Assembly: GCA_013388835.1 (NCBI GenBank)
Contig: JACAEL010000038.1
Location: 171-64,170 of the forward strand
Direction: 5' to 3'
Length of the DNA: 64,000 bases
Source of the DNA: Candidatus Thorarchaeota archaeon
GTDB taxonomy: Archaea; Asgardarchaeota; Thorarchaeia; Thorarchaeales; Thorarchaeaceae
Shown: positions 42,115 to 61,488 of the stretch, in pieces
Layout of the letters: every line of letters starts with the position of its first letter
Numbering within the stretch: position 1 is the stretch's first letter
Position numbers and translations under genes: made by a program
Notes under the pieces: generated by a model
Databases searched by the model: none
Told to the model about the DNA's origin: nothing
What the model saw: only the letters and a program-made list of their open reading frames with translations

Positions 42115-42122
42115 GCCCATGA

Positions 42123-43070: not shown

Positions 43071-43297
43071 ATCGCCGCGTTCAAGAAAACTGAGCGGAGA
43101 GGCGTCTGTCCTGATTCCATTCGGCTGTTCATTTCGAGCGTCGGCTATTTCACGACGGCCTCCGAATCCTTGTCTTCAAGAAGCATCGTTCTGCAACGGC
43201 CTCGGTTCTCCAAGACCAGCAAGAGGCGTTCTCACTGACGGTTCAGTACGGAATGCTTAAACGTTTCGCGTAGCTGCATCGGTAATACTCCTTTCAT

Positions 43298-45284: not shown

Positions 45285-46514
45285 TCAGTATATCTCATCC
45301 AGCCCGTCCCACTTCAGGCCGAGTGCCTGTGCAACCAGCACTGCGAGGTCCTTCACCTGCTTGCTACTGCCAGTCTGCGGCAGCTGTTCATGCATGAAGT
45401 CAACGCATGAGGGACAGGCGGTGGCCACGACCTGTGCGCTGGTGGCCTCGATATCCTCGACCTTCAGGCGGTTTATCTTGACAGAGAAGTCCGGGTCGAA
45501 CGCGCGGAGGACTCCACCACTTCCGCAACAGAAGCTCTTGTTCTTGGTGTGAGGCAGCTCCTCAAAGGTGACCCCAGGCAGGTTCTCGAGCACCTTGCGG
45601 GGTTCTTCATAGATGCCGCTGTTCCTTCCCGCATCGCACCCGTCATGGAATGTCACTGACACGTCCAGCGGACTGGTGAGGCCGCTGATTCTGCCGCGGT
45701 CGATGAGGTCAGCATAGTACTGAGCACCGTAGATGACCTCGAAGGGCACATCGATGTCCAGGAACTCGTGGTACTCTTCCTTCCACATCCTGTAGCAGCC
45801 AGGACAATTCGTGACCAGCCGCTCCACCCCGAGTTCCCTGTACTTGGCAATGTTGTGTTCGGCGAACAGTCTTGCGGTCTCGAAGTCGCCTGCCATTATC
45901 ATGGGGGCTCCGCAGCACCACTCCTGATCGCCCAGGACTGTGTAGTCTTCCTCCACCCGGTCCATTATGAGCGTCGTGGCGATGGTGGCCTGAATCGGCA
46001 CCGCCCTGTAAGAGGATGCGCAGCCGAAGAAGAACGCCGTCTTGGCTCTGCGACCCACACGCGACAGGAGGGCGTCCTCGTCGGGGTGCCAGTACGACCA
46101 GCCCTCCACCCGGTCCATCTGGCTCTGGCCTTGGACATTGTAAGACTTCAGAAGTGTCTCTCGGGCCGTCTTGAGCTGCTCGGGCCACATCCCCGCCTTG
46201 AAGAAGTCTGCTCGCATCGTCTGATACAGCTTCACGAAGGGGATGTTGACCTGACAGACCTCCTCACAGCCTCCACACAGTGTGCAGCCAAAGACCGCGT
46301 CCCTGAGACCGGTCAGTCCTTCAGACGGCTTGATTCTCTTCTGGAGAAGGGCTCGGGTCAGAAGCATCTTTCCCTTTCCTGAGTAACTGTCCACGCGCTT
46401 CACCTTGTATGTGGGGCAGGCACCATTGCCCACCTGGCAGAAGGAACACTGAGCACATCTGAATGCCATCTCCTGGAGACCATACTCTTGTAGTGTTGAG
46501 AATCGCATGGACAC
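45285..46514 (-). CDS. (Fe-S)-binding oxidoreductase with two 4Fe-4S motifs and two CCG domains (GlcF/GlpC/HdrD-like)
   Basis: CAQCSFCQVGNGACP and CTLCGGCEEVCQ ferredoxin motifs; CCG domains (CCGAPM…, CPGCY…, CCGSGG…). Confidence 0.8.
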   Translation of the reverse strand: MSMRFSTLQEYGLQEMAFRCAQCSFCQVGNGACPTYKVKRVDSYSGKGKMLLTRALLQKRIKPSEGLTGLRDAVFGCTLCGGCEEVCQVNIPFVKLYQTMRADFFKAGMWPEQLKTARETLLKSYNVQGQSQMDRVEGWSYWHPDEDALLSRVGRRAKTAFFFGCASSYRAVPIQATIATTLIMDRVEEDYTVLGDQEWCCGAPMIMAGDFETARLFAEHNIAKYRELGVERLVTNCPGCYRMWKEEYHEFLDIDVPFEVIYGAQYYADLIDRGRISGLTSPLDVSVTFHDGCDAGRNSGIYEEPRKVLENLPGVTFEELPHTKNKSFCCGSGGVLRAFDPDFSVKINRLKVEDIEATSAQVVATACPSCVDFMHEQLPQTGSSKQVKDLAVLVAQALGLKWDGLDEIY

Positions 46515-48719: not shown

Positions 48720-49178
48720 GTGAGGTCAATGTCGCTCAGAGAAGACACAGAGTTCTATTGCCTGCTCTGGCTTGGCATGGTCACACTGGGCTCGTACTAC
48801 TTCAACGTGTTCTATCTGTCAGCCACGAGCTCGACCTATCTCTCCGCCATCGGCTCATTGTTGCCCGTCCTGCTGGGGGCTCCCCTGATGCTTGTCTTTC
48901 TGTTCGTTGGTTATCTGAAGCCGGCAAGAGGCCGCATCAAGATGAACATGCTGGCCCTCGCGGTCATCGTCATGGTGTTCTACGCCATAATGATTGCAGG
49001 AGAGCCAACCGGCCAGGCTGGCGGCATGTACACCGCGTTCTGGGGCGCGGGAAGCTCACTGCTTGTCGCAGGTGCCCTTGCGATTCGGCCGTCACTGACC
49101 GAGAGCACCTCTCGTGGCATGCTTGACGTGTCAAAGCTGAAGTATCCGCCCGAGCCGCCAACCGACTCTGCAGAGTAG
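48720..49178 (+). CDS. Small integral membrane protein (4 TM)
   Basis: 152 aa hydrophobic ORF starting 1 bp after the fusion gene stop. Confidence 0.45.
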   Translation: MRSMSLREDTEFYCLLWLGMVTLGSYYFNVFYLSATSSTYLSAIGSLLPVLLGAPLMLVFLFVGYLKPARGRIKMNMLALAVIVMVFYAIMIAGEPTGQAGGMYTAFWGAGSSLLVAGALAIRPSLTESTSRGMLDVSKLKYPPEPPTDSAE

Positions 49179-49180
49179 AC

Positions 49181-49480
49181 TCACAGCTCCTTGAGCCACG
49201 CATAGGCGGAGAAACTCAGCAGCAGGCCAAATGCAATCCACGCGAAGAGGACTATACCCGGTCCCCAGTCGAACAGCGTCAGGTCCAAGTAGCCGTGCAC
49301 CCCTGTCACAGTCCCCGAGAACATCGTCATCAGTGTCCGGGAGGACCTAGTCTTCAAGTGAGCCAACAGAAAGGTCGACAGAAACAGGATGCCGCCCGTG
49401 CCAAAGAAAACCATGTGAAAGAATGTCAGTTCCACTGTTGATGCGAGCGCATACCAGAAATAGGAGCCCACGAATGCCAT
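49181..49480 (-). CDS. Small integral membrane protein (about 99 aa, 3 TM)
   Basis: Start taken at Met MAFVGSYFWY (49480). The longer ORF to 49687 reads through the direct repeats and is rejected. Confidence 0.45.
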   Translation of the reverse strand: MAFVGSYFWYALASTVELTFFHMVFFGTGGILFLSTFLLAHLKTRSSRTLMTMFSGTVTGVHGYLDLTLFDWGPGIVLFAWIAFGLLLSFSAYAWLKEL

Positions 49481-49496
49481 TCCACTGAGCAGAACG

Positions 49497-49606
49497 GTTT
49501 CAATCCCCGCGATATGGGATCTGTTTCTGCGACCAAGTATCTCTTGGCACGGGGCGTTCCTGTTTCCATGTTTCACTCCCCGCGATATGGGATCTGTTTC
49601 TGCGAC
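49497..49606. repeat. Two 37-bp direct repeats (gtttcaatccccgcgatatgggatctgtttctgcgac / gtttcactcc…, 1 mismatch) separated by a 36-bp unique spacer; minimal CRISPR-like array or regulatory direct repeat
   Basis: Read directly: repeat 1 at 49497-49533, spacer 49534-49569, repeat 2 at 49570-49606. Repeat length, spacer length and the GTTTCAAT 5' end are CRISPR-like. No cas genes are in the window. Confidence 0.5.
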
Positions 49607-50038
49607 ATGTCGGCCCCCGAACAGGCAATCTATGGTGTTGGAGTACGGATAGGCCTGCATTCTGGGGTGAGTTGTGTGCATCATCATTCTGCAAGGTCGC
49701 TTATAAACATCCCCACGCAGTATCGGTGGATGTCAAGTTGGGGGAAGGCCGAAGGGGTGAGGAAGGTCTACTGTCCCCTAGGAAAGGTTGTACAGACCGC
49801 GTCTTGTCAGCTGCTGCCGTCTCTCTCAATTGCTGACGGCTCGGGCAGGCTGTTCGAGAAGGCAGACAATGACCGTCCGGCACTCGCAGGACAGTCCGAA
49901 GCGTTTTTATGAAGCATGTCGGTAGCGGACGCCTAACGCCGGCATCCAAGGGACTCGACACAGCGCGGAGAGACATCGGGACAATGAATGTCTTGAGGGT
50001 CAGTCTGCTATTGCGTCGCCCAAGGAGAATCTGACGAC

Positions 50039-50521
50039 ATGAGCCTGACTGGTCTGCAGTGGAGTTCAACTGAAATGCGCCTGTTCATCGACTTCATCCC
50101 GGTCCTCCTGTGGGCCATATTCGCCATGGTACTCGTTGTCATAATGCTGTTGGCCTCTTGGGTGTTGCGCCCCCACGTCCTTCAGAACTCGGAGAAGACC
50201 TCGACCTACGAGTGTGGTGAGGAGCCTGTGGGCCCTGCGAGGATCTCGTATCCATACAACTACATGGTCTACACCGTGCTTTTTGTTGTGATCGACGTCC
50301 TCGGAGCCTTCCTCTACATCGTGGCGGCATCCACACTTCGTCTGTCAGTACCGGTGGTCTGGGAGGTGCTTCTGTTCGTAGTGCTGTTGGCCAGCGGTGT
50401 CGGCTACGCGATGAAGGTTCTGCCACATACGTCCACAGCCGGGAGTGAGACTCTGGCCCTGTATCGTGCGGCCAAGGCTGCATACATCGAGGGAGAACGC
50501 GAATCTGTGAGGTCAGACTGA
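50039..50521 (+). CDS. nuoA: NADH-quinone oxidoreductase subunit A (NuoA/Nqo7)
   Basis: 3-TM protein with YECGEEP motif. Confidence 0.85.
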   Translation: MSLTGLQWSSTEMRLFIDFIPVLLWAIFAMVLVVIMLLASWVLRPHVLQNSEKTSTYECGEEPVGPARISYPYNYMVYTVLFVVIDVLGAFLYIVAASTLRLSVPVVWEVLLFVVLLASGVGYAMKVLPHTSTAGSETLALYRAAKAAYIEGERESVRSD

Positions 50522-51123
50522 TGCAAGAGATTGAAGTGTTACTCGAACAGGTAGAGTTCGTGGCCATCGCCGTTGCGGTGATAGTCTTGGCGCTCCTTGC
50601 TCTTGAACACAAGGAGATTGTCTATGCGGCCTTCTTCTTCGGAATCATGGCCTCGGTGGTCGCGGGCGTCTTCCTCTTGCTCGAGGCCCCTTTCATCGCC
50701 GGTATGCAGATTGCCGTATACACGGGCGGAATCAGTGCGCTCATCATCTTTGCTGTACTGCTCTTGCCCAGGGCGCAGGACTCCTCGCTAGAGGTCTTCG
50801 AGTCTCCCAGAAGGAGGCGACTGGGGCTGGCCACTGCTGCGGGAGTCATGACGCTCTCCGGAGCGCTGGCACTTCTCTTCCCATGGTACGAGGCGTTTCC
50901 AGCTGGCCAACCTGACCTGGCCCAGAGCCTGCAGGAGCTTGCCGTCTGGATGTGGGGCACGCACGGTGTCATTGTTCAGATGGTTGCCCTGACGATGCTG
51001 ACTTCCATTGTTGGGACCATGACACTGCTGAGGATGGAGAAGACCGAACATCTCCAAGAGATTGCCACGTACACCAAGTCGGCTGAAGCCACCGACACGA
51101 GAGAGGAGGCTGAGAGACAGTGA
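50521..51123 (+). CDS. nuoJ: NADH-quinone oxidoreductase subunit J (NuoJ/ND6-like)
   Basis: 5-TM about 200 aa with the NuoJ-like VYTGGISALIIFAVLLL segment; position before nuoK. Confidence 0.7.
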   Translation: MQEIEVLLEQVEFVAIAVAVIVLALLALEHKEIVYAAFFFGIMASVVAGVFLLLEAPFIAGMQIAVYTGGISALIIFAVLLLPRAQDSSLEVFESPRRRRLGLATAAGVMTLSGALALLFPWYEAFPAGQPDLAQSLQELAVWMWGTHGVIVQMVALTMLTSIVGTMTLLRMEKTEHLQEIATYTKSAEATDTREEAERQ

Positions 51124-51431
51124 TCCCCCTGTCGTGGTATCTCATTCTGGCTTTCATTCTCATTGGTCTCGGGGCATACGGTATGGTTGTCAAGAGGAAT
51201 CTGATTCGTATTCTCATAGGCTCTGAGATCATGGCCAACGGTGTCAACATCGCGTTTGTTGCGACCTCGCTGTACTACCCGGTCTTCAACATCACTGGCC
51301 AGGCACTCATCGTCCTTGTGATATCCATCTCGGCGGCTCACACTGCGCTTGCGATGGTGTTGATGCTTCTCTACTACAGGCGATACAAGACTGTGGACCT
51401 TGGTCGTCGTCAGGTTGTGGAGGTGCGGTGA
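51120..51431 (+). CDS. nuoK: NADH-quinone oxidoreductase subunit K (NuoK/ND4L)
   Basis: 103 aa, 3 TM, LIGLGAYGMVVKRNLIRILIGSEIMANGVNIAFV. Confidence 0.85.
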   Translation: MIPLSWYLILAFILIGLGAYGMVVKRNLIRILIGSEIMANGVNIAFVATSLYYPVFNITGQALIVLVISISAAHTALAMVLMLLYYRRYKTVDLGRRQVVEVR

Positions 51432-51935
51432 TTGACGGAGAGTCCCTCAGCTCTGGCCTTTGCTCGAAGTGTCACGAACCGGTATCCGGACGTGCAGGCA
51501 GATGTGATTGACGAACACAATGTCAAGCTGAGCACACCCCCCGAAAGGATTCGTGATGTCGTTTCGCTCATCGACTCAGGCCTTTCAGACGCGTTCCCAG
51601 AGTCGGTCTTCGGTGTCGATCTGACCGGAGACCAGTACGAGCTGATATACTACTTCTGGTCCCACAACGCGCGACTCCTCTGCCAAGTGCGAGTGAGACT
51701 GACAGGACCCACCCCCTCCGTGCACTCCGTGGCCGACATGTTTCCGGGACTGGAGTGGCACGAGCGGGAGACCCATGAGATGTTCGGGATCCAGTTCGTG
51801 GGGCATCCGGACCTGAGGCCCCTCTTGCTTCCGGAGGAACTTAGAGGCAAGTACCCTCTCCGGAAGAGCTTCCAGACCGATAGGAGTCGTCTTGAGGAGT
51901 CGGGGCTTCCGTTGCGAGGAGGTGCGAGCGAGTGA
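51432..51935 (+). CDS. nuoC: NADH-quinone oxidoreductase subunit C (30 kDa)
   Basis: FPGLEWHERETHEMFGIQFVGHPDLRPLLLPEE signature. Confidence 0.85.
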   Translation: MTESPSALAFARSVTNRYPDVQADVIDEHNVKLSTPPERIRDVVSLIDSGLSDAFPESVFGVDLTGDQYELIYYFWSHNARLLCQVRVRLTGPTPSVHSVADMFPGLEWHERETHEMFGIQFVGHPDLRPLLLPEELRGKYPLRKSFQTDRSRLEESGLPLRGGASE

Positions 51936-53080
51936 CAACGAGACAGAAGCCGGACATACTCGAAGAGGCCTCTGAGATATGGTTTGGTCCTCAGCATGTC
52001 TCCGCTCACGGCTGGGCCACAAAGCTCACCATCGTTGGTGACTACGTGGTCGAGTGTGACCCGCACGCGGGCTACTTCCACAGGTCTGCGGAGAAGGTGC
52101 TGGAGTATCGTAACTTCAACCAAGGACCTCTGGTCATGGAGCGACTCTGCATGCTAGAGGCGTTTCTCGCAGAGTATCCCTACGTGAGTGCAGTGGAGAA
52201 GATAGCCGGTCTCGAAGTGCCAGAGAGGGCCAGAGTCCTGAGGACCATCATGATGGAGGCCAGTCGGATCCACAGCCTTCAGTTCTGGTGGGGGCAGTTC
52301 TCAGCCGAGCTCGGGCTGTTCGCAATGTTGCTCTGGCCGTGGATTGACAGAGAGTACTTCCTCGACACGTTCGAGGAGCTTACCGGGTCCAGACACACGG
52401 TGTCATTCAGCACTCCCGGCGGAGTGAGGTATGACATGACAGAGAAGGTCGCTCAGAAGCTGGACCGGGCGCTCACACGCCTGGAAGAGAGGATGCCCAA
52501 GTTTCGTGACATGCTCATGGGAAGCCCGACCTTTCGGCTTCGAACCCGAGGCGTGGGGCTACTGAGCGGCAGAGAGGCAATCAGGCTTGGACTGAGCGGC
52601 CCAAATGTGAAGGCATGCGGAATCCCGATGGACCTGCGCAAGGACATGCCTGACCCGAACCTGGCCTACGACCTCGTGGACTTCGAGGTGCCGACGGTGG
52701 AGAGCAAGGAACACCCGGGGATGAGTGACGCATACGACAGGATGGTGCAGCGATTCCACGAGGTCGAGACCTCAGTGAGCATAATCAGACAGCTCCTGCC
52801 TCATCTCAAGCCGGGCCCTGTCATCGACCCGAAGGCACGAGCGAAGACCAACCGACTTCCTGAGGGGGAGGCGTACGGAAGGGTCGAGGGCACACGAGGC
52901 ATCACAACAGTCTGGCTGAAGACCACCGACAAGGCACAGACACCCTATCGGGCGAAGGTGCGAGGACCGTGTTTCAACTCATACTACTCGCTAAAGCACC
53001 TCGTACCCGGACACAGATTTGCGGACTTCATAGTGGTGTTTGGTAGCCTTGACCCGTATCCGGGTTGGTGGGACAGGTGA
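51932..53080 (+). CDS. nuoD: NADH-quinone oxidoreductase subunit D (49 kDa)
   Basis: 382 aa, conserved NuoD regions (…HRSAEK…, C-terminal RGPCFNSYYSL…GSLDPYPGWWDR). Confidence 0.9.
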   Translation: MTTRQKPDILEEASEIWFGPQHVSAHGWATKLTIVGDYVVECDPHAGYFHRSAEKVLEYRNFNQGPLVMERLCMLEAFLAEYPYVSAVEKIAGLEVPERARVLRTIMMEASRIHSLQFWWGQFSAELGLFAMLLWPWIDREYFLDTFEELTGSRHTVSFSTPGGVRYDMTEKVAQKLDRALTRLEERMPKFRDMLMGSPTFRLRTRGVGLLSGREAIRLGLSGPNVKACGIPMDLRKDMPDPNLAYDLVDFEVPTVESKEHPGMSDAYDRMVQRFHEVETSVSIIRQLLPHLKPGPVIDPKARAKTNRLPEGEAYGRVEGTRGITTVWLKTTDKAQTPYRAKVRGPCFNSYYSLKHLVPGHRFADFIVVFGSLDPYPGWWDR

Positions 53081-53094
53081 GGAGGTGACATAGA

Positions 53095-54222
53095 GTGCAG
53101 TTCGACTTCTTCGAATGGCTTTCCGGGATACCGTCATGGCTCTGGGGCATACTCAGCTGGCTCTGGGGTGTCGTGCAGTGGTGGTTCTTCTGGGTCTGGG
53201 GACTCTTCGAATGGGTCTGGGGACTCGTTGTTGTCAACTTCTGGTTCCTGTTCAAAGCGGTCGTGTTTCCCGGTCTGATATTCATAGTCCTCGCAATCAT
53301 CTACTCCGTGTGGTTCTCAAGAAAACTGTGGGGTCGCATACAGGGCCGACGTGGTCCCTTCCACATCGGGAAGTATGGGGGTCTGCAGCTGTTCGCGGAT
53401 GCGATAAAGCTGGTCTCAAAGGAGACAATCATTCCAGACGGCGCCAAGAGGTGGATGTACCGGCTGCTTCCCAGTCTGCTTCTTGTGATTGTGATATTGC
53501 CGTTCGCCTTCGTACCCTGGGACGAATGGTGGTACATCTCAGACCTGTCTGTCAGCCTGGTCCTCATGTTCGCATTCGTGACCGCGGTCCCAGTGATTGC
53601 ACTCCTCGCAGGGTGGATCAGCGGGTCGAAGTACTCTCTGATAGGCGGCTTCAGAGCAGCGAACAACCAGTTTGCGGCGGAGATACCTCTCCTCATATCG
53701 TCAGTGGGCCCGGCGCTTCTTGCAGGCTCGCTCAGTATCATGACGATATCTCAGTCCCAGACAGCCATCTGGTACGTCTTTCTGCTTCCGGTGAGCTGCG
53801 CCACTTTCATCGTGAGTGCCGCTGCCACTACTGGCCTGGTGCCTTTCGATGCACCGATTGCAGACTCTGAGATCATATTCGGATGGAGAACGGAGTTCAG
53901 TGGCATCTACTTCACCATGACCTACTTTGCTGAGTTCGCAAAGCAGTTCCTCTACAGTGCAATGACGGTGGCGTTGTTTCTCGGGGGCTCTTACGGTCTG
54001 CCATTCCTGCCGGGGGTTGTCAACTTTCTCATCAAGACGCTGATAGTCATGTTCTTCTTTGTGGTCGTGACGAGTTCCTTCTTCCGTATTCGTCAGGATG
54101 AGATAGTCTACCACTCGTGGCGATACCTGCTGCCGCTGTCACTCCTGAATCTCGTCGTGGCCATGCTTGTCCTTGCCTATTTCCCACCGCTGGCCAGCGC
54201 GCTGCAGGGCATAGGAGGTTGA
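53095..54222 (+). CDS. nuoH: NADH-quinone oxidoreductase subunit H (ND1) with unusual Trp-rich N-terminal extension
   Basis: 8-TM NuoH core (GRIQGRRGPFHIGKYGGLQLFADAIKL, …FVPWD…) preceded by about 50 aa WLWGILSWLWGVVQWWFFWVWGLFEWVWGL. Confidence 0.85.
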   Translation: MQFDFFEWLSGIPSWLWGILSWLWGVVQWWFFWVWGLFEWVWGLVVVNFWFLFKAVVFPGLIFIVLAIIYSVWFSRKLWGRIQGRRGPFHIGKYGGLQLFADAIKLVSKETIIPDGAKRWMYRLLPSLLLVIVILPFAFVPWDEWWYISDLSVSLVLMFAFVTAVPVIALLAGWISGSKYSLIGGFRAANNQFAAEIPLLISSVGPALLAGSLSIMTISQSQTAIWYVFLLPVSCATFIVSAAATTGLVPFDAPIADSEIIFGWRTEFSGIYFTMTYFAEFAKQFLYSAMTVALFLGGSYGLPFLPGVVNFLIKTLIVMFFFVVVTSSFFRIRQDEIVYHSWRYLLPLSLLNLVVAMLVLAYFPPLASALQGIGG

Positions 54223-54226
54223 GACA

Positions 54227-54658
54227 ATGAGATTCTTCGCAGTCTTGGGTGACATATTCAGAGTCCTCAGACACATATTCAGACAGATCTTCGAGCGACC
54301 AATCACAGAGCTGTATCCCTACGAGGACCGCTACTATCCAGAGCGTACAAGGGGACGTCACATCCATGTCAGAGAGAACTGCACGGCCTGTGGACAGTGT
54401 GTCAGGGCCTGCCCGAACGTTGCGATTCGGATTGACAAGGCCGATAGGAAGTTCGAGAAGGACGCGGCACTCTACTTCGACTACACCAGATGCATCTTCT
54501 GTGGGCTATGCGTCCAGGCATGCAGGTTCAACGCGCTGTTTCACACTCCTGTGACGGACCTCTCTGAGGGAGACCGGGAGAGTCTGACATATGGTCCTGA
54601 GAGGATGTCCACTCTTGACAGAGAGCCTCTGAAGTGGCGTGGAAGGAGGTTCAGGTAG
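54227..54658 (+). CDS. nuoI: NADH-quinone oxidoreductase subunit I (2x[4Fe-4S], TYKY)
   Basis: CTACGQCVRACP and CIFCGLCVQACRFNAL ferredoxin motifs. Confidence 0.85.
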   Translation: MRFFAVLGDIFRVLRHIFRQIFERPITELYPYEDRYYPERTRGRHIHVRENCTACGQCVRACPNVAIRIDKADRKFEKDAALYFDYTRCIFCGLCVQACRFNALFHTPVTDLSEGDRESLTYGPERMSTLDREPLKWRGRRFR

Positions 54659-56178
54659 TGCAGACTCTCGAACTGCCGCTCATGGCCTCGTCGCTGGTTG
54701 TCCTCTTCATTGGAGGGCTCATCATCTACCTGCTCAGGGGTAAACTACAGGGGTCGGCTGGCAAGGTTGCAGTCGGCTTCTCATCGCTGTCAGTCGCGCT
54801 CATGATACCACCTTTCTACAGAGTGCTCGTGGAGAGAGGCACGGCATACGAGGGCTTCAGGTGGTCTGCAGTGCTTGGTGAGTTCGGCCTCAACCTCGAC
54901 CAGATAGCCTTCCCCATCACGTTCGCCATTGTAGTGCTCGGTTTCTTCTCAGTGTTGTACGCAGTGGGATACACTGAGCATACTGAGAACAGACCGACCT
55001 TCTTCGCCAATCAGCTGTTCTTTCTGATGGGCATGCAATGGGTCACTCTTGCAACCAACATCCTGGAGTTCTTCATCGCGTGGGAGCTCATGCTGGTTCC
55101 CAGCTACTTCCTCATTCTCTTCTGGGGACTGCCTGAGACCAGACAGCGAACAGCCATGAAGTTCTGGCTGTACACACAGAGCGGCGCAGTCACCATATTC
55201 ATCGGTCTGGCGCTGCTATACTATGTTTCGGGAGCGAGCAGTTTCGATATCGCAGTCATTCAGGCGGCGTATCCGCTCTTCGCTGGTCAGTCCCAACTCC
55301 TCAAGTTGATCTTCGTCCTGTTGGCGGCGGGTTTCCTTGTGAAGATGGCCGTCGTTCCGCTTCACTGGTGGTTGCCGCCCGTGCATGCTGAGGCCCCCAC
55401 ACCAATCTCAGTACTCCTCTCCGGCGCCATGATCGAGACAGGCGCATATGCGCTGGTCAGATTCGGGACGATAACTATGCCGGGGACGGCAAGGGAACTG
55501 TCATTTGTAGTCGCCGCGGTTGGCGTGGTCACCATGTTCTATGGTGGGTTCATGGCACTCGCACAGAAGGACATCAAGCGCCTCCTCGCATACTCGTCGG
55601 TCTCACAGATGGGCTACGTCCTGTTCGCTCTTGGCACCTTCTCATCCTTTGGTATGGCCGGAGGACTCTTCCATCTCATCAACCACGCATTCTCCAAGGG
55701 CCTGCTCTTCATGACCGCGGGCGCCGTGATACACCAGACACATCTACGCGACATTGATCTCATGGGTGGTCTCCACAACAAGATGCCAGTGACCGCCTTC
55801 GCTGCAGCGATAGGCGCAATGAGTATTGCCGGGAGTCCTCCGCTCTCCGGCTTTGCGAGCGAGTGGATGATGTTCCTCGGCGGCTTTCAGGCTGCGCTCA
55901 TCACGGACACCGGGGTCGGGTCAGTGCCATTTCTGGCCATCACGATACTGGCGCTCTCAAGCACGATTCTGAGTGCAGGCTATATGCTTCGCTTCCTCTG
56001 GAAGGTATTCCTGGGTCCACATCCTGAGACACTGGAAGATGTGAGAGAGGGTCCGAGGTCGATGACTGTCCCGATGATTGCCCTGTCCGTCCTCATTGTG
56101 CTGCTCGGAATACTACCCGGCCTAGTCCTCGACGTCATAACGGCGGGGACGAACGGCATTCCAAACATACTACCCTGA
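54634..56178 (+). CDS. Extra complex-I antiporter-like subunit (NuoN/NuoM-type, Mrp-antiporter fold), fourth such subunit in the operon
   Basis: 14-TM protein with the conserved PLHWWLPPVHAEAPTPISVLLSGAMIETGAYALVRF segment. The start may be the GTG/ATG just after the nuoI stop (54658 or 54682). Confidence 0.75.
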   Translation: MAWKEVQVVQTLELPLMASSLVVLFIGGLIIYLLRGKLQGSAGKVAVGFSSLSVALMIPPFYRVLVERGTAYEGFRWSAVLGEFGLNLDQIAFPITFAIVVLGFFSVLYAVGYTEHTENRPTFFANQLFFLMGMQWVTLATNILEFFIAWELMLVPSYFLILFWGLPETRQRTAMKFWLYTQSGAVTIFIGLALLYYVSGASSFDIAVIQAAYPLFAGQSQLLKLIFVLLAAGFLVKMAVVPLHWWLPPVHAEAPTPISVLLSGAMIETGAYALVRFGTITMPGTARELSFVVAAVGVVTMFYGGFMALAQKDIKRLLAYSSVSQMGYVLFALGTFSSFGMAGGLFHLINHAFSKGLLFMTAGAVIHQTHLRDIDLMGGLHNKMPVTAFAAAIGAMSIAGSPPLSGFASEWMMFLGGFQAALITDTGVGSVPFLAITILALSSTILSAGYMLRFLWKVFLGPHPETLEDVREGPRSMTVPMIALSVLIVLLGILPGLVLDVITAGTNGIPNILP

Positions 56179-56189
56179 GGTGAGGTCAA

Positions 56190-58454
56190 GTGCTGCTAGG
56201 ACTGCCCTACTATCTGATTGTCGTGATTCCTCTGGCAGGCTCTCTGTTCGTCCCACTGGTCGGTCGCTTCAACGAGAGGCTCCGCGACTGGACTCCAGCG
56301 ATTCTCATGGGTATCAGCATGGTCTTGTGCTGGTCGCTGCTGGGAGACATGGACGCTCCTCAGGGGCCGACGAGTTGGGTGTGGATTGCGTCGCTGAATC
56401 TCCACTTCGAGCTTCTCATAGATCCCCTCTCGGTCATCATGGCAATACTCTCAAGCACACTCTGTTTCCTCATCTATGTCTACTCCACAGAGTACATGGC
56501 ACACGAGGGCGACCGTGACAGATTCTTCTTTCTCATGCTTGCCTTTGGCGGCGGGATGCTCACACTTGTCCTGAGCAACAACCTGCTCATCGCCTTCATC
56601 GGCTGGGAGATCATGGGCTTCTGCTCCTACGGTCTCATAGGCTTCTGGACCGACAGGCGAAATCCCCCTGAGACCGACCCGACCGATGTGAAGTATGGCA
56701 ACTCCTTGCTCAGCTTCAAGACAGAGGGACAGTACAACACCCACTGTGGCACAAAGGCATTCATCGTGACGCGGGTGGGCGACGCATTCATGCTCGGAGG
56801 CATCCTGCTCCTGTTTGCGTTCGCGGGGACCTTCTCATTCACCGGCACCGAGTCTCTGTCAAGCAATGCCAATGACTGGTGGGGTGGTCTCGCTGCCATC
56901 GGCCTGCTCATTCCCACACTTCTGTTGATATTCATGGGTGCGATCGGGAAGTCAGGACAGGTGCCCCTTCAGGTCTGGCTGCCGGAGGCCATGGCTGGGC
57001 CAACATCCGTGTCCGCGCTCATTCATGCGGCAACAATGGTCAAGGCGGGTGTGTACATCACTGCACGCTTCGTCGTCACCATTGCCGGTGCGTCGGGAAT
57101 CAGCGAAGGCGGACATGGCCTGTGGACCCCGCTTCAGCAGGTTGGCATGGAGTCCGCATTCACATTCTTCCTGATTGTGGGTGTGATCGGTGGTCTCACC
57201 GCCTTCATGACCGCTACAATGGGCATGGTGTCCATGGAGCTGAAGCAGGTGTTGGCGTTCTCCACGCTGAGCCAGCTCGGATACATGATGCTGGCTCTGG
57301 GCACAGCAGGCATGCTGGGCACTCACTACGAGCCGGCCTACCTCAGCAGTGTGCTCCATGTGGTGAGCCACGGCGCGTTCAAGGCCCTTCTCTTCCTTGC
57401 TGCGGGTGGAGTGATCCACGCAACGCACACCAAGTACATGACCAAGATGGGCGGACTCAGAAGCAAGATGCCAAAGACATTCGCGGTCATGGTCATAGGC
57501 GTCCTTGCACTGTCCGGTATCCCTCCATTCTCAGGCTTCTGGTCAAAGGACTCCATAATCGAGTACGCGTATGAGCTGGCCCTCCATGAGAGCGTCGGTC
57601 TGTTACTCTTCGTGCTGGCCGTTGGAGCTGCAGCATGTACCATCTTCTACTCCATCCGTCTTGTCGGCATGACCTTCTTAGGAAGTCCGCATGAATCACC
57701 TGCAGAGACCACAACAGCTGCAACAGCCCACGACGACTCACACAGGCCGGACGAGGAGCACAAGGACGAGGGCCACGACAGCGGCGCTCACCACGCTTCC
57801 GAGCCCCATGACCCCGGTCCTGCAATGATGATTCCTCTGTATGTGCTGGCGGCCTTCACTGTGTTTGCATTTGCCGTCTTTCCCTTCATCCAGTCGCTGG
57901 TAATGCATGAGGGGCCCATGACCCCCGAACTGTATGCGGGCCTCCTCCTTGAGATGATGTGGGTCAAGGTCTCTCCGGAGGGAATAGTGCCGTTCGGCAT
58001 CACACTGTTGGCCCTGGCGGCGGGTGCCATACCTGCCTGGAGGATCTATGTCAGGGGCGCTGGCAGACACAACCGGGTCATTCCCGAGACCGGGCTTGCC
58101 CGACGGGTGTACAGTTTCCTCCGTCACCGCTGGTACATCAACGAGTCGTACTACTGGCTTGTTGGGAAGTTCCTTCGCTTCACCGAGTCCTGGAGAGTGA
58201 GGATTGACAACCGAGTCATAGACGGGATTGACTTTGGCTCCGCAAGAGCTGCGCGGGTCCTCTCCAAGAAGGTGCGCTGGTTTGATGACAATGTCATTGA
58301 TGGTTTCGCAGAGGGCATTGCAAAGACCGGCATCAGTGCGTCCGAGTCCAGCCAGACCTTGCAGACAGGTCGAGTCAACGACTACGTGGGTGTGATGATA
58401 TTCGGGACGGGCCTGATACTCATCCTGGTCCTGATAGTGATGGGGGTGATATAG
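56190..58454 (+). CDS. nuoL: NADH-quinone oxidoreductase subunit L (ND5) with long C-terminal extension and His/acid-rich insertion
   Basis: GWEIMGFCSYGLIGFW…, …LPEAMAGPTSVSALIHAATMV…; 754 aa with a C-terminal lateral-helix region; insert …HDDSHRPDEEHKDEGHDSGAHHASEPHD…. Confidence 0.85.
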   Translation: MLLGLPYYLIVVIPLAGSLFVPLVGRFNERLRDWTPAILMGISMVLCWSLLGDMDAPQGPTSWVWIASLNLHFELLIDPLSVIMAILSSTLCFLIYVYSTEYMAHEGDRDRFFFLMLAFGGGMLTLVLSNNLLIAFIGWEIMGFCSYGLIGFWTDRRNPPETDPTDVKYGNSLLSFKTEGQYNTHCGTKAFIVTRVGDAFMLGGILLLFAFAGTFSFTGTESLSSNANDWWGGLAAIGLLIPTLLLIFMGAIGKSGQVPLQVWLPEAMAGPTSVSALIHAATMVKAGVYITARFVVTIAGASGISEGGHGLWTPLQQVGMESAFTFFLIVGVIGGLTAFMTATMGMVSMELKQVLAFSTLSQLGYMMLALGTAGMLGTHYEPAYLSSVLHVVSHGAFKALLFLAAGGVIHATHTKYMTKMGGLRSKMPKTFAVMVIGVLALSGIPPFSGFWSKDSIIEYAYELALHESVGLLLFVLAVGAAACTIFYSIRLVGMTFLGSPHESPAETTTAATAHDDSHRPDEEHKDEGHDSGAHHASEPHDPGPAMMIPLYVLAAFTVFAFAVFPFIQSLVMHEGPMTPELYAGLLLEMMWVKVSPEGIVPFGITLLALAAGAIPAWRIYVRGAGRHNRVIPETGLARRVYSFLRHRWYINESYYWLVGKFLRFTESWRVRIDNRVIDGIDFGSARAARVLSKKVRWFDDNVIDGFAEGIAKTGISASESSQTLQTGRVNDYVGVMIFGTGLILILVLIVMGVI

Positions 58455-59993
58455 ATGCAGTCCGAACTAGCCCGTACCCTTCTGTCGCTTCTGCCGCTTG
58501 GACCACTGTGGTTCATGCTAGTCCTTCCTCTCTTCATGTCGTTTGTCGCATACCTTGCGGGCAAGAAACTGGCGCGACCAGTCGCCATTCTTACCACGCT
58601 CGTTGAGCTCGTGATTGCGGTCGCCCTCGCTCTGGCTTATGACACATCGACTCTTGCCGCTCCGTACCTGGACTACGTCTCAACCTATACGATGGGAGCG
58701 CTCCCCTACCACAGTGCAATCATCCAGCTGATAGTCGGCGTCGATGGCATCTCAGTGGTGATGGTCGTACTCTCAAGTCTGGTTGTGTTTGTCGCGGTAC
58801 TGAGTGCAACTCACATCCATGAGTCTGAGGGGACATTCTACATGCTGATGTTGCTCCTGCAGACAGGCCTCACCGGTGTGTTCGTATCACTTGACCTGAT
58901 GGGCTTCTTCGTCTTCTGGGAACTCGTACTCATCCCAATGTTCTTCGTCATAGGCAAGTTTGGGGAGGAGGGCTGTCGTCACGCTGCAATCAAGTTCTTC
59001 ATCTACACCCATCTCGGTTCGCTGGCAATGCTCCTCGGCTTCTTCGCTCTCTTCTTTGCAGGTGGGTACACCTTCGACATGGTGGCTCTGAGGAACACCC
59101 CACTGGCGCCCGAGGTGCAGATTGGCTTCGCCTTAGCGGTCTTTCTCGGCGCGGGAGTCAAGCTGCCCGTGTGGCCTCTACACAACTGGCTTCCGTGGGC
59201 ACATGTCAAGGCTCCAACCCCAGGTTCGGTCATTCTTGCTGGAATCCTACTCAAGATGGGTGGCTACGCTTTCATCCGACTGGGCGTCTGGCTGAATCCC
59301 GTGGCATTCTCACGCCTCGCAATCCCGTTCGCTGTCGTCGCGGTCTTCACCTGTATCTACGCAGCTTTCACCGCCATGGCTCAGACGGACTTGAAATCGA
59401 TGGTGGCGTACACTTCTATCAACCATATGGCCTGGGTCTTGCTCGGTGTGGCAATCGGTACTGAACTCGCGCTACAGGGAGCAGTGTTCATGATGTTCAG
59501 TCATGGCGCCATCATCTCGGTGCTCTTCATTGTGGCAGGCCAGATGAAGTACTCTGCGGGCAGTCGCGAGATACCTGCAATTCAGGGACTGTCCAAGAGG
59601 GCACCGCGCCTCTCTGCCCTGTTCGTACTCGCCTCGCTCGCAGCTTTTGGTCTCCCAGGTCTCAGCGGCTTCATAGCTGAGGCCCTTGTACTCTTTGGCT
59701 GGGCCACCCTGCTCACCATCTCGAACTTCATGGTGTGGATATGGGCTTCCTTGATCACCTTTGCGATATTCATCACGGTGGGTTACTTCCTGTGGACCCT
59801 GAACCGGACTGTCTTCAGCGAGTCCGACCCTACCAAGGAGGTCTCAGACGCACCACTGCGTGACCTGGTTGCCCCTGTGCTCATGATGGTCCCTGTGTTT
59901 GTCTTGGGCCTCTGGCCCGACCTCGTGATAGTCCAGATACAGCAGGTCATTCGCTTCATAGTCAGTAGTATGGCCGGAGGAGGTGTCCCATAG
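58455..59993 (+). CDS. nuoM: NADH-quinone oxidoreductase subunit M (ND4)
   Basis: LPVWPLHNWLPWAHVKAPTPGSVILAGILLKMGGYAFIRL matches the NuoM signature. Confidence 0.8.
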   Translation: MQSELARTLLSLLPLGPLWFMLVLPLFMSFVAYLAGKKLARPVAILTTLVELVIAVALALAYDTSTLAAPYLDYVSTYTMGALPYHSAIIQLIVGVDGISVVMVVLSSLVVFVAVLSATHIHESEGTFYMLMLLLQTGLTGVFVSLDLMGFFVFWELVLIPMFFVIGKFGEEGCRHAAIKFFIYTHLGSLAMLLGFFALFFAGGYTFDMVALRNTPLAPEVQIGFALAVFLGAGVKLPVWPLHNWLPWAHVKAPTPGSVILAGILLKMGGYAFIRLGVWLNPVAFSRLAIPFAVVAVFTCIYAAFTAMAQTDLKSMVAYTSINHMAWVLLGVAIGTELALQGAVFMMFSHGAIISVLFIVAGQMKYSAGSREIPAIQGLSKRAPRLSALFVLASLAAFGLPGLSGFIAEALVLFGWATLLTISNFMVWIWASLITFAIFITVGYFLWTLNRTVFSESDPTKEVSDAPLRDLVAPVLMMVPVFVLGLWPDLVIVQIQQVIRFIVSSMAGGGVP

Positions 59994-61488
59994 GATGCAG
60001 CAACTCACATGGCTAGTTGACGCTCTCAGAGCTCTCTTTGCACCACTTACGGACGAGATCGAGTCAGTAATCCCAACAGACCTCGTGGGTTCACTTCCCG
60101 CTCTCACGCTGGTGGCGTTCGGTCTGTTGGCGCTACTCGTGGGACTGAGGTACAATCCCCTTTCCCTGAGCCTGCTCGGTGTGGTGGTCGCTTCATTTGA
60201 GATGGTCCTGTTTGATGCCACAGGTCCCTCGTTCGGGTCGCTCTTCGTCAGGGACGGTCTGTCCGACTTCTTCATCTACATAGTCTTGATTGTGGCGTTC
60301 CTGATGCTTGTGTCATCTTCGTCCTTTGACGGCGACACAGGCGCATACAACTTCCTGTTGATGATGTCGTTCGCTGGGGCCATATGGGTTGTCATGGCGG
60401 CGGACCTCATTGCCCTCTTTGTTGCATGGGAGCTGATGTCCACTCCAACCTACGTGCTGGTAGCCATGAGTCCCAATCGCTCTGGCATTGATGGCGCGAC
60501 CAAGTACTTTGTCATGGGCCTGATGTCCACCATGCTCATCCTTCTTGGGATTGCACTGCTGTATGGAGTCACTGGGACCACACAGATGGCTGCAGTAGGG
60601 AGGGCAGTCTCAGATGTGTGGAACACCGTTCCTGTCGGTCAGGCAGCATACACGATACTACTGGCAATCGTACTGCTGGTCGTCGCATTCGGTTTCAAGA
60701 TAGGTGTGTTTCCGGGCTGGATGTGGGTGCCTGACACCTACTCGGCTGCAGATGGCAACATCGCGGGGTATCTTGCAGGCGCAACCAAGAAGACCGGCGT
60801 AGCGGCCATCATTCGACTGCTCTTTGTGGCACTCGCTGTCGCAAGATACGAATGGATATGGGTCCTCGCTCTCGTCTCGGTGCTCACCATGACCATAGGC
60901 AACTACCTGGCGCTTGGACAGAAGAGCGTGGTGAGAATGCTCGCCTTCAGCAGCATAGCCATGATGGGTTATCTCTTCATGGGCATTGCCGCCAGCACCG
61001 AGTTCGGCGTGGCCGCAGCATCGTTCCACGCACTTGTGCACGCACTCATGAAAGGGGGCGCCTTCATCCTGATCTGGGCGATATCTCTCAAGATGGCAAA
61101 GGATGTGACCTACGACGATCTGGCCGGACTGGGCAAGCGGTCGCCACTGGCTGCAGGCATACTGGCCGTCCTTGTGCTCTCGCTGATAGGGGTCCCGTTT
61201 GCAGCTGGATTCTGGTCCAAGATATTCCTTCTTTGGAGCGCTGTCGATGCCGGTCTGTGGTGGTTGGCCGTGCTAGGCATACTGAACATGGTCATGTCCC
61301 TCGGCTACTACGTTCCACTTCTCTCCAAGATGTACCAGGAGGAGCCGTCAGACAGCACACCCTTGTCCGTTGCAAGAGCACCGCTGTTCGTTTCAGCAGT
61401 ATGCGCGGTTCTGTTGGTGATAATGATGATAGACTGGGGTCTGGCCATGGACTACGCTTGGTCTGCCGGAAGTGCGCTCTTTCCCTAG
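59983..61488 (+). CDS. nuoN: NADH-quinone oxidoreductase subunit N (ND2)
   Basis: 14-TM antiporter-like protein, divergent PDxYxxA region (FPGWMWVPDTYSAADGNIAGYLAGATK); last gene of operon. Confidence 0.75.
   Translation: MSHRMQQLTWLVDALRALFAPLTDEIESVIPTDLVGSLPALTLVAFGLLALLVGLRYNPLSLSLLGVVVASFEMVLFDATGPSFGSLFVRDGLSDFFIYIVLIVAFLMLVSSSSFDGDTGAYNFLLMMSFAGAIWVVMAADLIALFVAWELMSTPTYVLVAMSPNRSGIDGATKYFVMGLMSTMLILLGIALLYGVTGTTQMAAVGRAVSDVWNTVPVGQAAYTILLAIVLLVVAFGFKIGVFPGWMWVPDTYSAADGNIAGYLAGATKKTGVAAIIRLLFVALAVARYEWIWVLALVSVLTMTIGNYLALGQKSVVRMLAFSSIAMMGYLFMGIAASTEFGVAAASFHALVHALMKGGAFILIWAISLKMAKDVTYDDLAGLGKRSPLAAGILAVLVLSLIGVPFAAGFWSKIFLLWSAVDAGLWWLAVLGILNMVMSLGYYVPLLSKMYQEEPSDSTPLSVARAPLFVSAVCAVLLVIMMIDWGLAMDYAWSAGSALFP

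Follow-up and report, generated by a model that had tools for sequence, protein, structure and literature searches.

A Thorarchaeota complex I-type operon with four antiporter-like subunits and a flavoprotein-fused NuoB

Introduction

Among the systems closest to the one reported here, "2M complex I" (Chadwick, Hemp, Fischer & Orphan 2018) combines a fourth pump with a 26-amino-acid (aa) insertion in the lateral helix (HL) of NuoL, and one more H+ per cycle was proposed for it; examples come from Nitrospira, Chloroflexota and heterotrophic marine Thaumarchaeota (PMC9040806, PMC7300363). The insertion in the Nitrospira enzyme was postulated to accommodate four pumps, not three, and HL insertions are also found in NuoL of Manganitrophaceae complexes without an extra pump gene (PMC9040806). 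Here, we analyze a nuo operon with four antiporter-like genes and an upstream gene in which NuoB is fused to a flavoprotein, both located on a 64,000-nucleotide (nt) stretch of a Candidatus Thorarchaeota archaeon genome (GenBank assembly GCA_013388835.1, contig JACAEL010000038.1, positions 171 to 64,170; hereafter "the window"). All inferences below rest on sequence analysis, with 64 kb of this genome covered.

Another group of relatives lacks the NADH-binding subunits NuoEFG: the photosynthetic NDH-1, the FpoF-less Fpo of acetoclastic methanogens, and the Nuo complexes of Sifarchaeia/Jordarchaeia and Heimdallarchaeia, and for the NuoEFG-less Asgard complexes ferredoxin as the donor at NuoI is a published inference (PMC9723677, bioRxiv 10.1101/2024.07.04.601786). 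The arms of Heimdallarchaeia enzymes are reported to be shortened, without one or more pumps, and the Thorarchaeota enzyme is not described in that work (Appler et al.). A survey of archaeal fusions lists NuoBC and NuoBCD only (PMC11237513). Our own literature searches for a GlcD/FAD-NuoB fusion, and for Thorarchaeota together with NuoM, gave nothing relevant: no paper in the searched literature mentions both Thorarchaeota and NuoM, and a flavoprotein-fused NuoB serving as an input or output part was not found described in the searchable literature.

We favor, with moderate confidence, the reading that this locus encodes a ferredoxin-linked, carrier (quinone)-coupled four-pump relative of complex I without an NADH module. 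The four-pump architecture with an HL insertion is of the already known 2M kind; what differs from 2M complex I is the extra subunit, which is not a NuoM, and the position of its gene, the flavoprotein-NuoB fusion, and atypical residues in NuoD and NuoK.

A predicted four-pump membrane arm

Scans with Pfam and NCBIfam profiles, covering ~60 of the 65 open reading frames (ORFs) of the window, resolved the + strand genes at 50039-61488 as nuoA-J-K-C-D-H-I-Mx-nuoL-M-N, where Mx denotes the fourth antiporter-like subunit. This order departs from the canonical nuo order, as the initial annotation had recognized. Intergenic spacing ranges from -25 to +14 nt throughout nuoA to nuoN, typical of one operon. 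Four genes with a Proton_antipo_M domain are genuinely present, and the eleven-subunit core of complex I is complete, with ten subunits encoded in the operon and NuoB as a domain of the upstream fusion. Ahead of Mx, the operon comprises nuoA (50039-50521; PF00507, 73 bits), nuoJ (50521-51123; PF00499, 73 bits), nuoK (51120-51431; PF00420, 75.5 bits), nuoC (51432-51935; PF00329, 101.5 bits), nuoD (51932-53080; PF00346, 209 bits), nuoH (53095-54222; PF00146, 281 bits), and nuoI (54227-54658; Fer4 families, and TIGR01971 at 86 bits, below cutoff), all on the + strand. NuoI carries two CxxCxxCxxxC motifs, at residues 52 (CTACGQCVRAC) and 89 (CIFCGLCVQAC). The operon contains no nuoB, the sole NuoB domain of the window being part of the 46779-48719 product, and no NuoE, NuoF, NuoG, or FpoF family member was detected in the operon or among the ORFs scanned, in line with what had been claimed from the sequence. 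FpoO was likewise not found in the window by profile scans, nor were MrpB/C/E/F/G-type genes: the other membrane genes are those of NuoA, NuoH, NuoJ, and NuoK.

The four antiporter-like genes, also on the + strand, are Mx (54634-56178, with a possible alternative start at 54658 giving 506 aa; PF00361, 240 bits), nuoL (56190-58454, 754 aa; PF00662 and PF00361, with TIGR01974 above cutoff at 462 bits), a canonical nuoM (58455-59993; TIGR01972 above cutoff at 406 bits), and nuoN (59983-61488; best match TIGR01770 at 275 bits, below the 332.6 cutoff). Mx passes the TIGR01972 NDH_I_M cutoff at 311 bits, with HyfB (284) and MrpA (262) models near and NuoL models likewise. Against solved structures, its scores are similarly even (NdhD 190, Escherichia coli NuoM 187, MbhH 180, MbsH' 179, and MrpA 172 bits), whereas the NuoM of the window scores 239 bits against NuoM and 120 bits against MbhH.

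We then placed these subunits in a neighbor-joining tree of 58 sequences and 461 columns with 200 bootstraps, i.e., a distance method with limited taxon sampling. NuoM of Thorarchaeota and of E. coli and the two M copies of Chloroflexota all fall in a canonical NuoM clade with 100% bootstrap; Mx lies outside it and is itself monophyletic at 100%, as is the NuoN clade. Mx and the window NuoM share 27.7% identity. The possibility that 54634-56178 is nuoN or a recent NuoM duplicate is ruled out by family scores and tree. The profile classification suggested in the initial annotation hence separates the two genes in doubt, 54634-56178 not being simply nuoN and 59983-61488 being of NuoN type by best match and tree; the latter assignment is putative, drawn from a best match below cutoff together with pump residues and tree position.

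The residues associated with pumping are retained. When aligned with the E. coli subunits NuoL/M/N and HyfB/D/F, the positions at transmembrane helices (TM) 5, 7, 8, and 12 are Glu/Lys/Glu/Glu in Mx, Glu/Lys/Lys/Glu in NuoM, and Glu/Lys/Lys/Lys in NuoN, and NuoL, NuoM, and NuoN all show canonical patterns. The Glu that replaces Lys in TM8 of Mx ("MIETG"), found in five of five aligned Thorarchaeota Mx and in several relatives, is still ionizable, and Mx conforms to the charged-residue pattern expected of a functional pump subunit (TM5 Glu, TM7 Lys, TM8 Lys/His, and TM12 Lys/Glu).

The lateral helix of NuoL is extended to match. An extra 26-residue HL copy is encoded at 58206-58283 on the + strand (NuoL residues 673-698, DNRVIDGIDFGSARAARVLSKKVRWF) and is followed by the canonical copy at residues 699-727. 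Aligned to each other at a 26-residue offset, the two segments score 32, compared with an average of 19.3 (sd 3.5) after shuffling, and canonical NuoL/NdhF chains align their "D..v(I/V)DG" motif to NuoL ~673-681 or ~699-707. Measured from "WY.NE.Y" to "QTG", HL covers 80 residues in the window; most Thorarchaeota have 80-81 residues here, Chloroflexota have 82, and E. coli has 51, based on modal values and alignment since the lengths obtained by regular expression are partly artefactually short. As judged from these alignments, Thorarchaeota NuoL carries the published structural signature of a four-pump arm, although this insertion is not fully diagnostic. Both results, the conserved pump residues of Mx and a NuoL HL longer by 26 residues, bear out the earlier claim that the fourth antiporter-like subunit is real, and back the proposal of an extra translocation module with a possibly higher H+/e- ratio.

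NuoL also contains a His/Asp/Glu-rich loop at residues ~499-545 (57684-57824; HDDSHRPDEEHKDEGHDSGAHHASEPHD), whose length varies among Thorarchaeota and is longest in the locus L012. NdhF of T. elongatus has a shorter His-rich stretch at this position, and the NuoL of E. coli and Chloroflexota are without the loop.

Because a plain homologue listing was filled by Thorarchaeota orthologues, Mx outgroups were obtained from a search of representatives combined with a cluster look-up. Across 1.8 billion cluster representatives, the nearest full-length relatives share 40-49% identity with Mx, and those with a name are "NuoM family" proteins of Promethearchaeota/Hodarchaeota and Bathyarchaeia. On a Hodarchaeota contig (JBHLKK010000001.1; L090 7845-11500), a 709-aa NuoL-like gene is followed by an Mx-like gene (499 aa, ~43% identity), with zero other nuo genes within 10 kb. 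This NuoL-like protein is 38% identical to the window NuoL over its full length and has an equally long HL; such a pair, which resembles a portable "distal pump module", fits Mx and NuoL as physical neighbors. The Bathyarchaeia Mx-like gene is an orphan adjoining V-ATPase genes. By tree and searches, Mx is no duplicate of NuoM but a member of a distinct archaeal clade, and the fourth pump of Thorarchaeota looks to have been acquired as a distal module along with a long-helix NuoL, rather than by duplication of NuoM as in Chloroflexota. Recruitment of this type fits repeated independent origins of four-pump arms, which Chadwick et al. reportedly proposed.

Some of the best-scoring Mx matches are proteins of ~1250-1330 aa (P0241, P0242, P0244, P0245, and others) with three separate antiporter-like stretches. 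They are apparently triple pump-subunit fusions, and one of them is from Sporomusa carbonis.

When compared to 2M complex I, the Thorarchaeota locus shares the four antiporter-like genes in a nuo cluster and the 26-residue HL insertion. It differs in that the extra subunit is no NuoM paralogue and its gene precedes rather than follows nuoL, in the TM8 Lys to Glu replacement of Mx, in the flavoprotein-fused NuoB, and in a NuoD without Tyr87. The nearest non-Asgard relatives of NuoL in the genome scan are from Chloroflexota, in clusters ordered nuoA-H-J-K-L-M-M-N and with an equally long HL. An enlarged arm and a 26-residue HL extension are also shared with Complex_I_3 of Candidatus Manganitrophaceae and the rhizobial "green" complex I; unlike the Thorarchaeota enzyme, however, these are bacterial and have MrpD-like subunits in place of NuoL and five pumps, and a NuoB fusion goes unmentioned in the available part of the source (PMC9040806). 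The NuoEFG-less complexes resemble the Thorarchaeota enzyme in their 11-subunit core, absent N-module, and presumed use of ferredoxin at NuoI, but have three or fewer pumps, and the sources consulted do not mention a flavoprotein-NuoB fusion for them. Specifically, cyanobacterial NDH-1 provides the best PDB matches of Mx (NdhD) and NuoL (NdhF), whereas Fpo differs in that the Thorarchaeota subunits miss Fpo-specific NCBIfam cutoffs.

The Chloroflexota loci themselves (L053-L078) are membrane-arm-only clusters, the peripheral-arm genes being located elsewhere, with nuoD/H/I-like genes on the opposite strand in L057 and L063. The second M of these clusters has Leu for Lys in TM7 ("AVLAG") in the three loci where it was extracted, of four examined.

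Conservation of the locus

We next evaluated whether this arrangement is shared across the lineage. A genome scan with NuoL recovered ~52 Thorarchaeota species-level genomes, after which similarity fell sharply, the Chloroflexota that came next sharing 32-34% identity. An identical copy of the fusion protein is encoded in a Candidatus Thorarchaeota genome bin, and the protein matches ~45 more clusters at 70-83% identity, nearly all of 644-649 aa (a few up to 667) and almost entirely from Thorarchaeota. When all window proteins were located by tblastn, a single order was observed wherever the contig was long enough: a gene for an HdrD-like iron-sulfur (Fe-S) protein (-), the fusion (+), orf152 (+), orf168 (-), and nuoA-J-K-C-D-H-I-Mx-L-M-N. 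The exceptions were L001/L082, where genes for a sensor kinase, a TPR protein, and a UbiE-family methyltransferase lie between orf152 and nuoA, and L044, where the fusion gene is not directly upstream. Mx sits between nuoI and nuoL in every Thorarchaeota locus examined, overlapping or with 11-nt spacing.

The gene order is shared far beyond chance. With about 30-50 Thorarchaeota species sharing both the order and the fusion, these are the lineage standard and not an assembly artefact. The synteny comparison called for by the initial annotation thus returned the same order in ~50 Thorarchaeota species-level genomes. That annotation had also allowed for an ordinary explanation, in which the order would be standard for the lineage and 54634-56178 simply nuoN; the former holds, the latter does not.

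A flavoprotein domain fused to NuoB

About 1.3 kb upstream of the operon, the + strand gene at 46779-48719 encodes a 646-aa protein that starts with a flavoprotein of residues 1-450 and ends in NuoB, in agreement with the earlier observation that B is displaced upstream as a fusion. The flavoprotein domain (46779-48128) has a VAO/PCMH fold of the D-lactate dehydrogenase/alkyl-DHAP synthase (AGPS) type (PF01565, 148 bits; PF02913, 37 bits), with FAD_binding_4 and FAD-oxidase_C spanning residues 48-447. It is followed by an aromatic and basic-rich linker (residues 452-486; 48132-48236), modeled by AF2 as a single helix at a pLDDT of ~50-65. Zero Kyte-Doolittle transmembrane segments were found in this linker helix, which we infer to lie on the membrane surface. 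The NuoB domain itself (residues ~487-646; 48237-48719) matches PF01058 at 85 bits and two NCBIfam NuoB models above cutoff (NF005012, 175 bits; TIGR01957, 168 bits), which cover residues ~490-630. Its Cys512/513, Cys577, and Cys607 align with the CC...C...CP motifs of E. coli NuoB (tandem Cys, GxCAxSGG, and PGCPP); with these four cysteines kept, cluster N2 should be present.

The flavoprotein domain was modeled by AF2 with pLDDT mostly >85. Foldseek retrieved mouse D-lactate dehydrogenase with a TM-score of 0.85 at 24% identity, then LctD, and then AGPS, a metal-free lipid enzyme with an equally similar fold. The catalytic metal site of the mouse enzyme is missing: its triad H398/H405/E442 aligns to Tyr/Val/Pro ("IDGYVNSKTGV", "GGHPHSTG") when matched by phmmer to 8JDB, with moderate alignment confidence, and the HxGDGNxH and GEHG motifs are missing across the whole subfamily alignment. 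For metal-dependent D-2-hydroxyacid dehydrogenases, the PCMH and cap domains are thus there and the His-His-Glu triad is not; the TIGR00387 glcD model gives 141 bits, far from its cutoff of 568. Since the metal triad is absent, we do not assign the fusion partner to the D-lactate or glycolate dehydrogenases. Overall, the domain shares its PCMH/VAO FAD fold with GlcDEF, Fe-S D-lactate dehydrogenases, LctD of Ldh-EtfAB (7QH2), and mouse LDHD (8JDE), at TM-scores of 0.82-0.85, and, as in GlcD/GlcF-type systems, its partner carries two CCG domains in addition to two 4Fe-4S motifs; it differs from GlcD/LDHD-type enzymes in its low identity (22-26%), in the two absent motifs, and in having NuoB as its C-terminal partner.

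Members of the same subfamily occur outside the fusion, as unfused Thorarchaeota paralogues and as bacterial proteins of 900-1030 aa, which join this FAD domain to a 2x[4Fe-4S]/CCG domain where Thorarchaeota have NuoB. In the Thorarchaeota locus L084 (SDNP01000025.1, 8665-11497), an unfused flavoprotein of 498 aa is encoded co-directionally with a CCG Fe-S gene. Its C-terminus, "FPPLKWIRND", corresponds to the beginning of the NuoB N-terminal helix, unrelated genes follow, and no nuo operon is adjacent; the gene resembles what would remain once NuoB and the nuo operon had been lost. L084 also holds a separate NiFe-hydrogenase-like cluster ~5 kb downstream of the flavoprotein.

Unfused NuoB proteins with 66-69% identity to the NuoB domain of the fusion are encoded at L087 10001-10561 and L089 4951-5942. 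One of these genes is a lone nuoB beside hypC/hypF/hypD, and the other forms a nuoA-nuoB pair flanked by UbiA, geranylgeranyl-reductase-family (GGR), and polyprenyl synthase genes.

Acceptor site and enzyme class

Residues around the expected quinone site are atypical. Relative to Thermus thermophilus Nqo4, NuoD keeps the equivalent of His38 (His26), but the Tyr87 equivalent is Met74, after a conserved Cys73 (52148-52153), so that of the His-Tyr pair expected to bind a quinone head group only the His is left. Met occupies this position in 36 of 37 Thorarchaeota orthologues (Leu in the remaining one), and the motif "ER[LMI]C[ML]xE[AS]F" is found in all 37. The best PDB match of NuoD scores 204 bits and MbsL comes second at 199 bits; at the NuoD R-x-C-M-x-E site, MbsL has "RICVPE". 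The membrane-bound sulfane reductase MBS of P. furiosus (6U8Y) resembles the Thorarchaeota enzyme in this shared R-x-C-x-x-E, in the full-length alignment of MbsL with NuoD, and in MbsH' being among the best Mx matches, but differs in that the Thorarchaeota arm is of Nuo type (A, H, J, K, L, M, N) rather than Mrp type and that the C-terminal Cys of MbsL is absent in NuoD. In NuoK, Glu36 is kept and Glu72 (E. coli numbering) is replaced by His ("AAHTA" in 35 of 36 Thorarchaeota orthologues versus "AAEAS" in E. coli).

NuoD also lacks the NiFe ligands of hydrogenases: one of the four cysteines is left, the N-terminal motif reading R-L-C-M-L-E and the C-terminal one DPYPGWWDR (zero Cys). A group 4 membrane-bound [NiFe] hydrogenase (Mbh/Ech/Hyf) is ruled out by these missing CxxC motifs. 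An F420H2 dehydrogenase is ruled out as well, FpoF being absent in the window and subunit scores falling far below the family cutoffs (FpoD 250 versus 600, FpoL 305 versus 1050, and FpoH 213 versus 475 bits), as do those of the FpoC and FpoI models. Judged from motifs and NCBIfam scores, the enzyme is neither a hydrogenase nor an Fpo, and its acceptor site is not a textbook quinone site.

Genomic neighborhood and a candidate membrane carrier

Divergent from the fusion gene lies a gene for an HdrD/GlcF/TfrB-like Fe-S protein (45285-46514, - strand; PF02754 CCG, 111 bits in two stretches, and PF13183), composed of a 2x[4Fe-4S] ferredoxin part and two CCG domains. Its best NCBIfam models, all below cutoff, are TfrB (154 bits), LdhH (132), and GlpC (112). 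The gene adjoins the fusion in about 20 Thorarchaeota loci and in L081-L084. Between the fusion and nuoA lie two small genes without Pfam or NCBIfam match: orf152 (48720-49178, + strand), directly after the fusion gene and with at least two hydrophobic segments, and orf168 (49181-49687, - strand), whose C-terminal half is hydrophobic. By tblastn, orf152 matches at 30-47% identity at the same position in ~35 Thorarchaeota loci and orf168 at 31-48% identity in ~35 loci. They could encode extra subunits, anchors, or assembly factors.

Further upstream, a block at 40909-45245 carries genes expected for a prenylated membrane carrier: a GGR-family flavoprotein (40909-42114, + strand; TIGR02032 above cutoff at 245 bits, and PF22578), which possibly saturates a prenyl side chain; a polyprenyl diphosphate synthase (42123-43070, - strand; PF00348, 182 bits, with NCBIfam isoprenyl diphosphate synthases all below cutoff); a MenA-like UbiA-family prenyltransferase (43298-44350, + strand; PF01040, 97 bits); and an ICMT/PEMT-like membrane methyltransferase. 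The best models for the UbiA-family gene are all MenA (1,4-dihydroxy-2-naphthoate polyprenyltransferase), with NF004751 at 159.5 bits (cutoff 264) and TIGR00751 at 100.4 bits (cutoff 102.15). A mutS gene lies beyond the block, at 38123-40717.

The succession MutS, GGR, polyprenyl synthase, UbiA, CCG protein, and FAD protein recurs in two other Thorarchaeota genomes (L082/L083 and L084), the GGR gene holding the same position in all three, and a distant homologue of the flavoprotein adjoins UbiD and a 4HBT thioesterase. The FAD/CCG pair hence travels with prenylated-carrier genes with or without an adjacent complex I, as expected for a carrier-linked redox module in its own right. This argues that such a module has become tethered to complex I in most Thorarchaeota, as far as gene context can tell.

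Proposed function and alternatives

In the favored reading of a ferredoxin-linked, carrier-coupled four-pump enzyme, the membrane arm would be ordered NuoH-A/J/K-N-M-Mx-L, with the 26-residue lengthening of HL allowing NuoL to span the extra subunit Mx, and the peripheral arm would consist of NuoC, NuoD, NuoI, and NuoB, the latter as the C-terminal domain of a flavoprotein with a D-lactate dehydrogenase fold. A low-potential cytoplasmic donor, probably ferredoxin, would dock at NuoI, and its electrons would travel along the clusters of NuoI and then N2 of NuoB before reaching a membrane carrier of prenyl-quinone type, probably made by the neighboring MenA-like, polyprenyl synthase, and GGR-family genes. 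The potential drop would drive translocation of ~5 H+ per 2e-; alternatively, the enzyme would run backward and spend five H+ on lifting electrons to ferredoxin. The flavoprotein domain and the HdrD/GlcF-like protein would then represent a quinone-linked redox module tethered to the Q-site. Between ferredoxin (~-450 mV) and menaquinone (~-75 mV), roughly 70-80 kJ are available per 2e-, enough for ~5 H+ at moderate proton-motive force. A reverse run would need ~five H+ to reduce ferredoxin with menaquinol, and would be useful to a Wood-Ljungdahl organism.

Several observations weigh against this reading. HL insertions occur also without an extra pump gene, and the place of Mx within the arm is itself a prediction. 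The loss of the NuoD Tyr and the Glu72 to His change in NuoK point to an atypical acceptor site and coupling channel, and the acceptor may, given these residues, be something other than a quinone. The MenA-like gene scores below the NCBIfam cutoffs, and no men/mqn head-group genes were seen in the window, its two radical-SAM genes belonging to other families. Finally, AF2 gives no usable NuoB domain or domain arrangement for the fusion, since the alignment is shallow there (NuoB domain pLDDT <50).

Other explanations mainly concern the role of the flavoprotein. Taken together, the NuoB-flavoprotein, its HdrD-like partner, and the two small membrane proteins might form a new module at the quinone-site end of the complex, acting as an input next to N2 or as an output to a soluble acceptor, a proposal we put forward as tentative and on balance doubtful. 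The initial annotation had suggested a specialized input module, which is plausible given the flavoprotein joined to NuoB: the FAD would oxidize an organic substrate (a 2-hydroxyacid or similar), electrons would enter at or near N2, possibly via the HdrD/GlcF-like Fe-S protein, quinone would be reduced, and protons pumped. The conserved length and sequence of the fusion across Thorarchaeota, a fold nearest that of D-lactate dehydrogenases and of LctD from the Ldh-Etf complex, the conserved divergent GlcF/HdrD-like neighbor, and the bacterial homologues with Fe-S/CCG domains at the NuoB position are all consistent with this idea. Yet the replacement of the metal triad by Tyr/Val/Pro extends to the whole subfamily, and the FAD protein and its CCG partner occur with prenylquinone genes and no adjacent nuo operon in L084. 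The fusion is moreover made at the NuoB N-terminus, which in Nqo6 structures is near the membrane interface, away from the NuoI end of the cluster chain. Energetically, lactate/pyruvate (~-190 mV) to menaquinone (~-75 mV) yields roughly 22 kJ per 2e-, far short of five or even two H+, which argues against the flavoprotein as the sole input of a five-proton pump. We thus consider an organic-substrate input unlikely. An output, in which the carrier reduced at NuoD/NuoB (a quinol, or N2 directly) is re-oxidized on the spot by the flavoprotein and HdrD-like protein to reduce a soluble acceptor such as a disulfide, 2-oxoacid, or enoate, would make of this locus a self-contained mini respiratory chain that oxidizes ferredoxin and pumps protons, in an anaerobe for which no other quinol oxidase is known. 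It would account for the absence of Tyr87 from NuoD and for a R-x-C-M-x-E motif like that of MbsL in the sulfane-reducing MBS, for the HdrD/TfrB/GlpC-type CCG proteins as best matches of the neighboring gene, and for FAD, CCG, and prenylquinone genes being kept together even without an adjacent nuo operon, and it has a parallel in the heterodisulfide-reductase domains on other Asgard complex I-like enzymes (Appler et al.). However, the acceptor cannot be named, no HdrE-type membrane anchor was identified among the genes of the locus (orf152 and orf168 are candidates only), and the direction of electron flow is not readable from sequence, the idea being built on context alone; we regard it as improbable.

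The two remaining alternatives concern the complex itself. Mx could be a stand-alone cation/proton antiporter-like gene that is in the operon by chance, leaving a three-pump, 11-subunit complex I relative. Its nearest relatives outside Thorarchaeota are indeed encoded outside nuo operons, its scores against NuoM, MbhH, MbsH', and MrpA are near-equal, and HL insertions can occur where an extra subunit is missing, but this chance placement would have to hold, with tight spacing between nuoI and nuoL, in every Thorarchaeota locus examined, next to a NuoL whose HL extension is exactly the 26 residues expected for one extra subunit, and in spite of the Hodarchaeota pairing of an Mx-like with a long-HL NuoL-like gene. 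To our knowledge, single antiporter-like subunits are not known to function by themselves, and we find this alternative very unlikely. Even less probable, to the point of being close to negligible, is an assignment of the complex to the membrane-bound hydrogenases or the F420H2 dehydrogenases (Fpo/Fqo), and not to the quinone-type complex I relatives. A weak NiFeSe_Hases Pfam match on NuoD (22.6 bits), Fpo models among the NCBIfam matches, and the prediction of other Asgard complex I-like enzymes as hydrogenases (Appler et al.) would point in this direction, but a hydrogenase is contradicted by the ligand analysis, with its single remaining NiFe cysteine and DPYPGWWDR at the C-terminal motif, and an F420H2 dehydrogenase by FpoD, FpoL, FpoH, FpoC, and FpoI scores far below cutoffs and by FpoF and FpoO not being found in the window.

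No known group is more closely related to the eukaryotic host lineage than the Asgard archaea, whose energy metabolism has been deduced nearly entirely from genomes. The usual picture of Thorarchaeota is one of fermenters or acetogens whose electron transport chain is "incomplete". A ferredoxin-linked four-pump enzyme would suggest membrane-bound, ferredoxin-driven energy conservation in this lineage, or the proton-driven supply of reduced ferredoxin for the Wood-Ljungdahl pathway. If true, it would also represent a further, apparently independent origin of the four-pump arm, through recruitment of a non-NuoM subunit and a long-helix NuoL, and provide natural variants at three mechanistically debated positions (NuoD Tyr87, NuoK Glu72, and the TM8 Lys). 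Should the flavoprotein instead serve as an output, one locus would unite carrier biosynthesis with a five-proton pump and a terminal reductase, and an Asgard archaeon hitherto held to be fermentative or acetogenic would possess a full anaerobic respiratory chain.

Other observations

An Rfam scan of the window returned zero RNA families. A + strand ORF at 49514-49912, which overlaps orf168, had zero tblastn matches in any locus. On the Thorarchaeota chromosome CP070761.1 (L081 1-9808), where the prenyl-carrier block of the window is absent upstream of the fusion, this region is occupied by more FAD_binding_4 and CCG/Fe-S genes, an amine-oxidase-like flavoprotein, and PNPOx-like genes.

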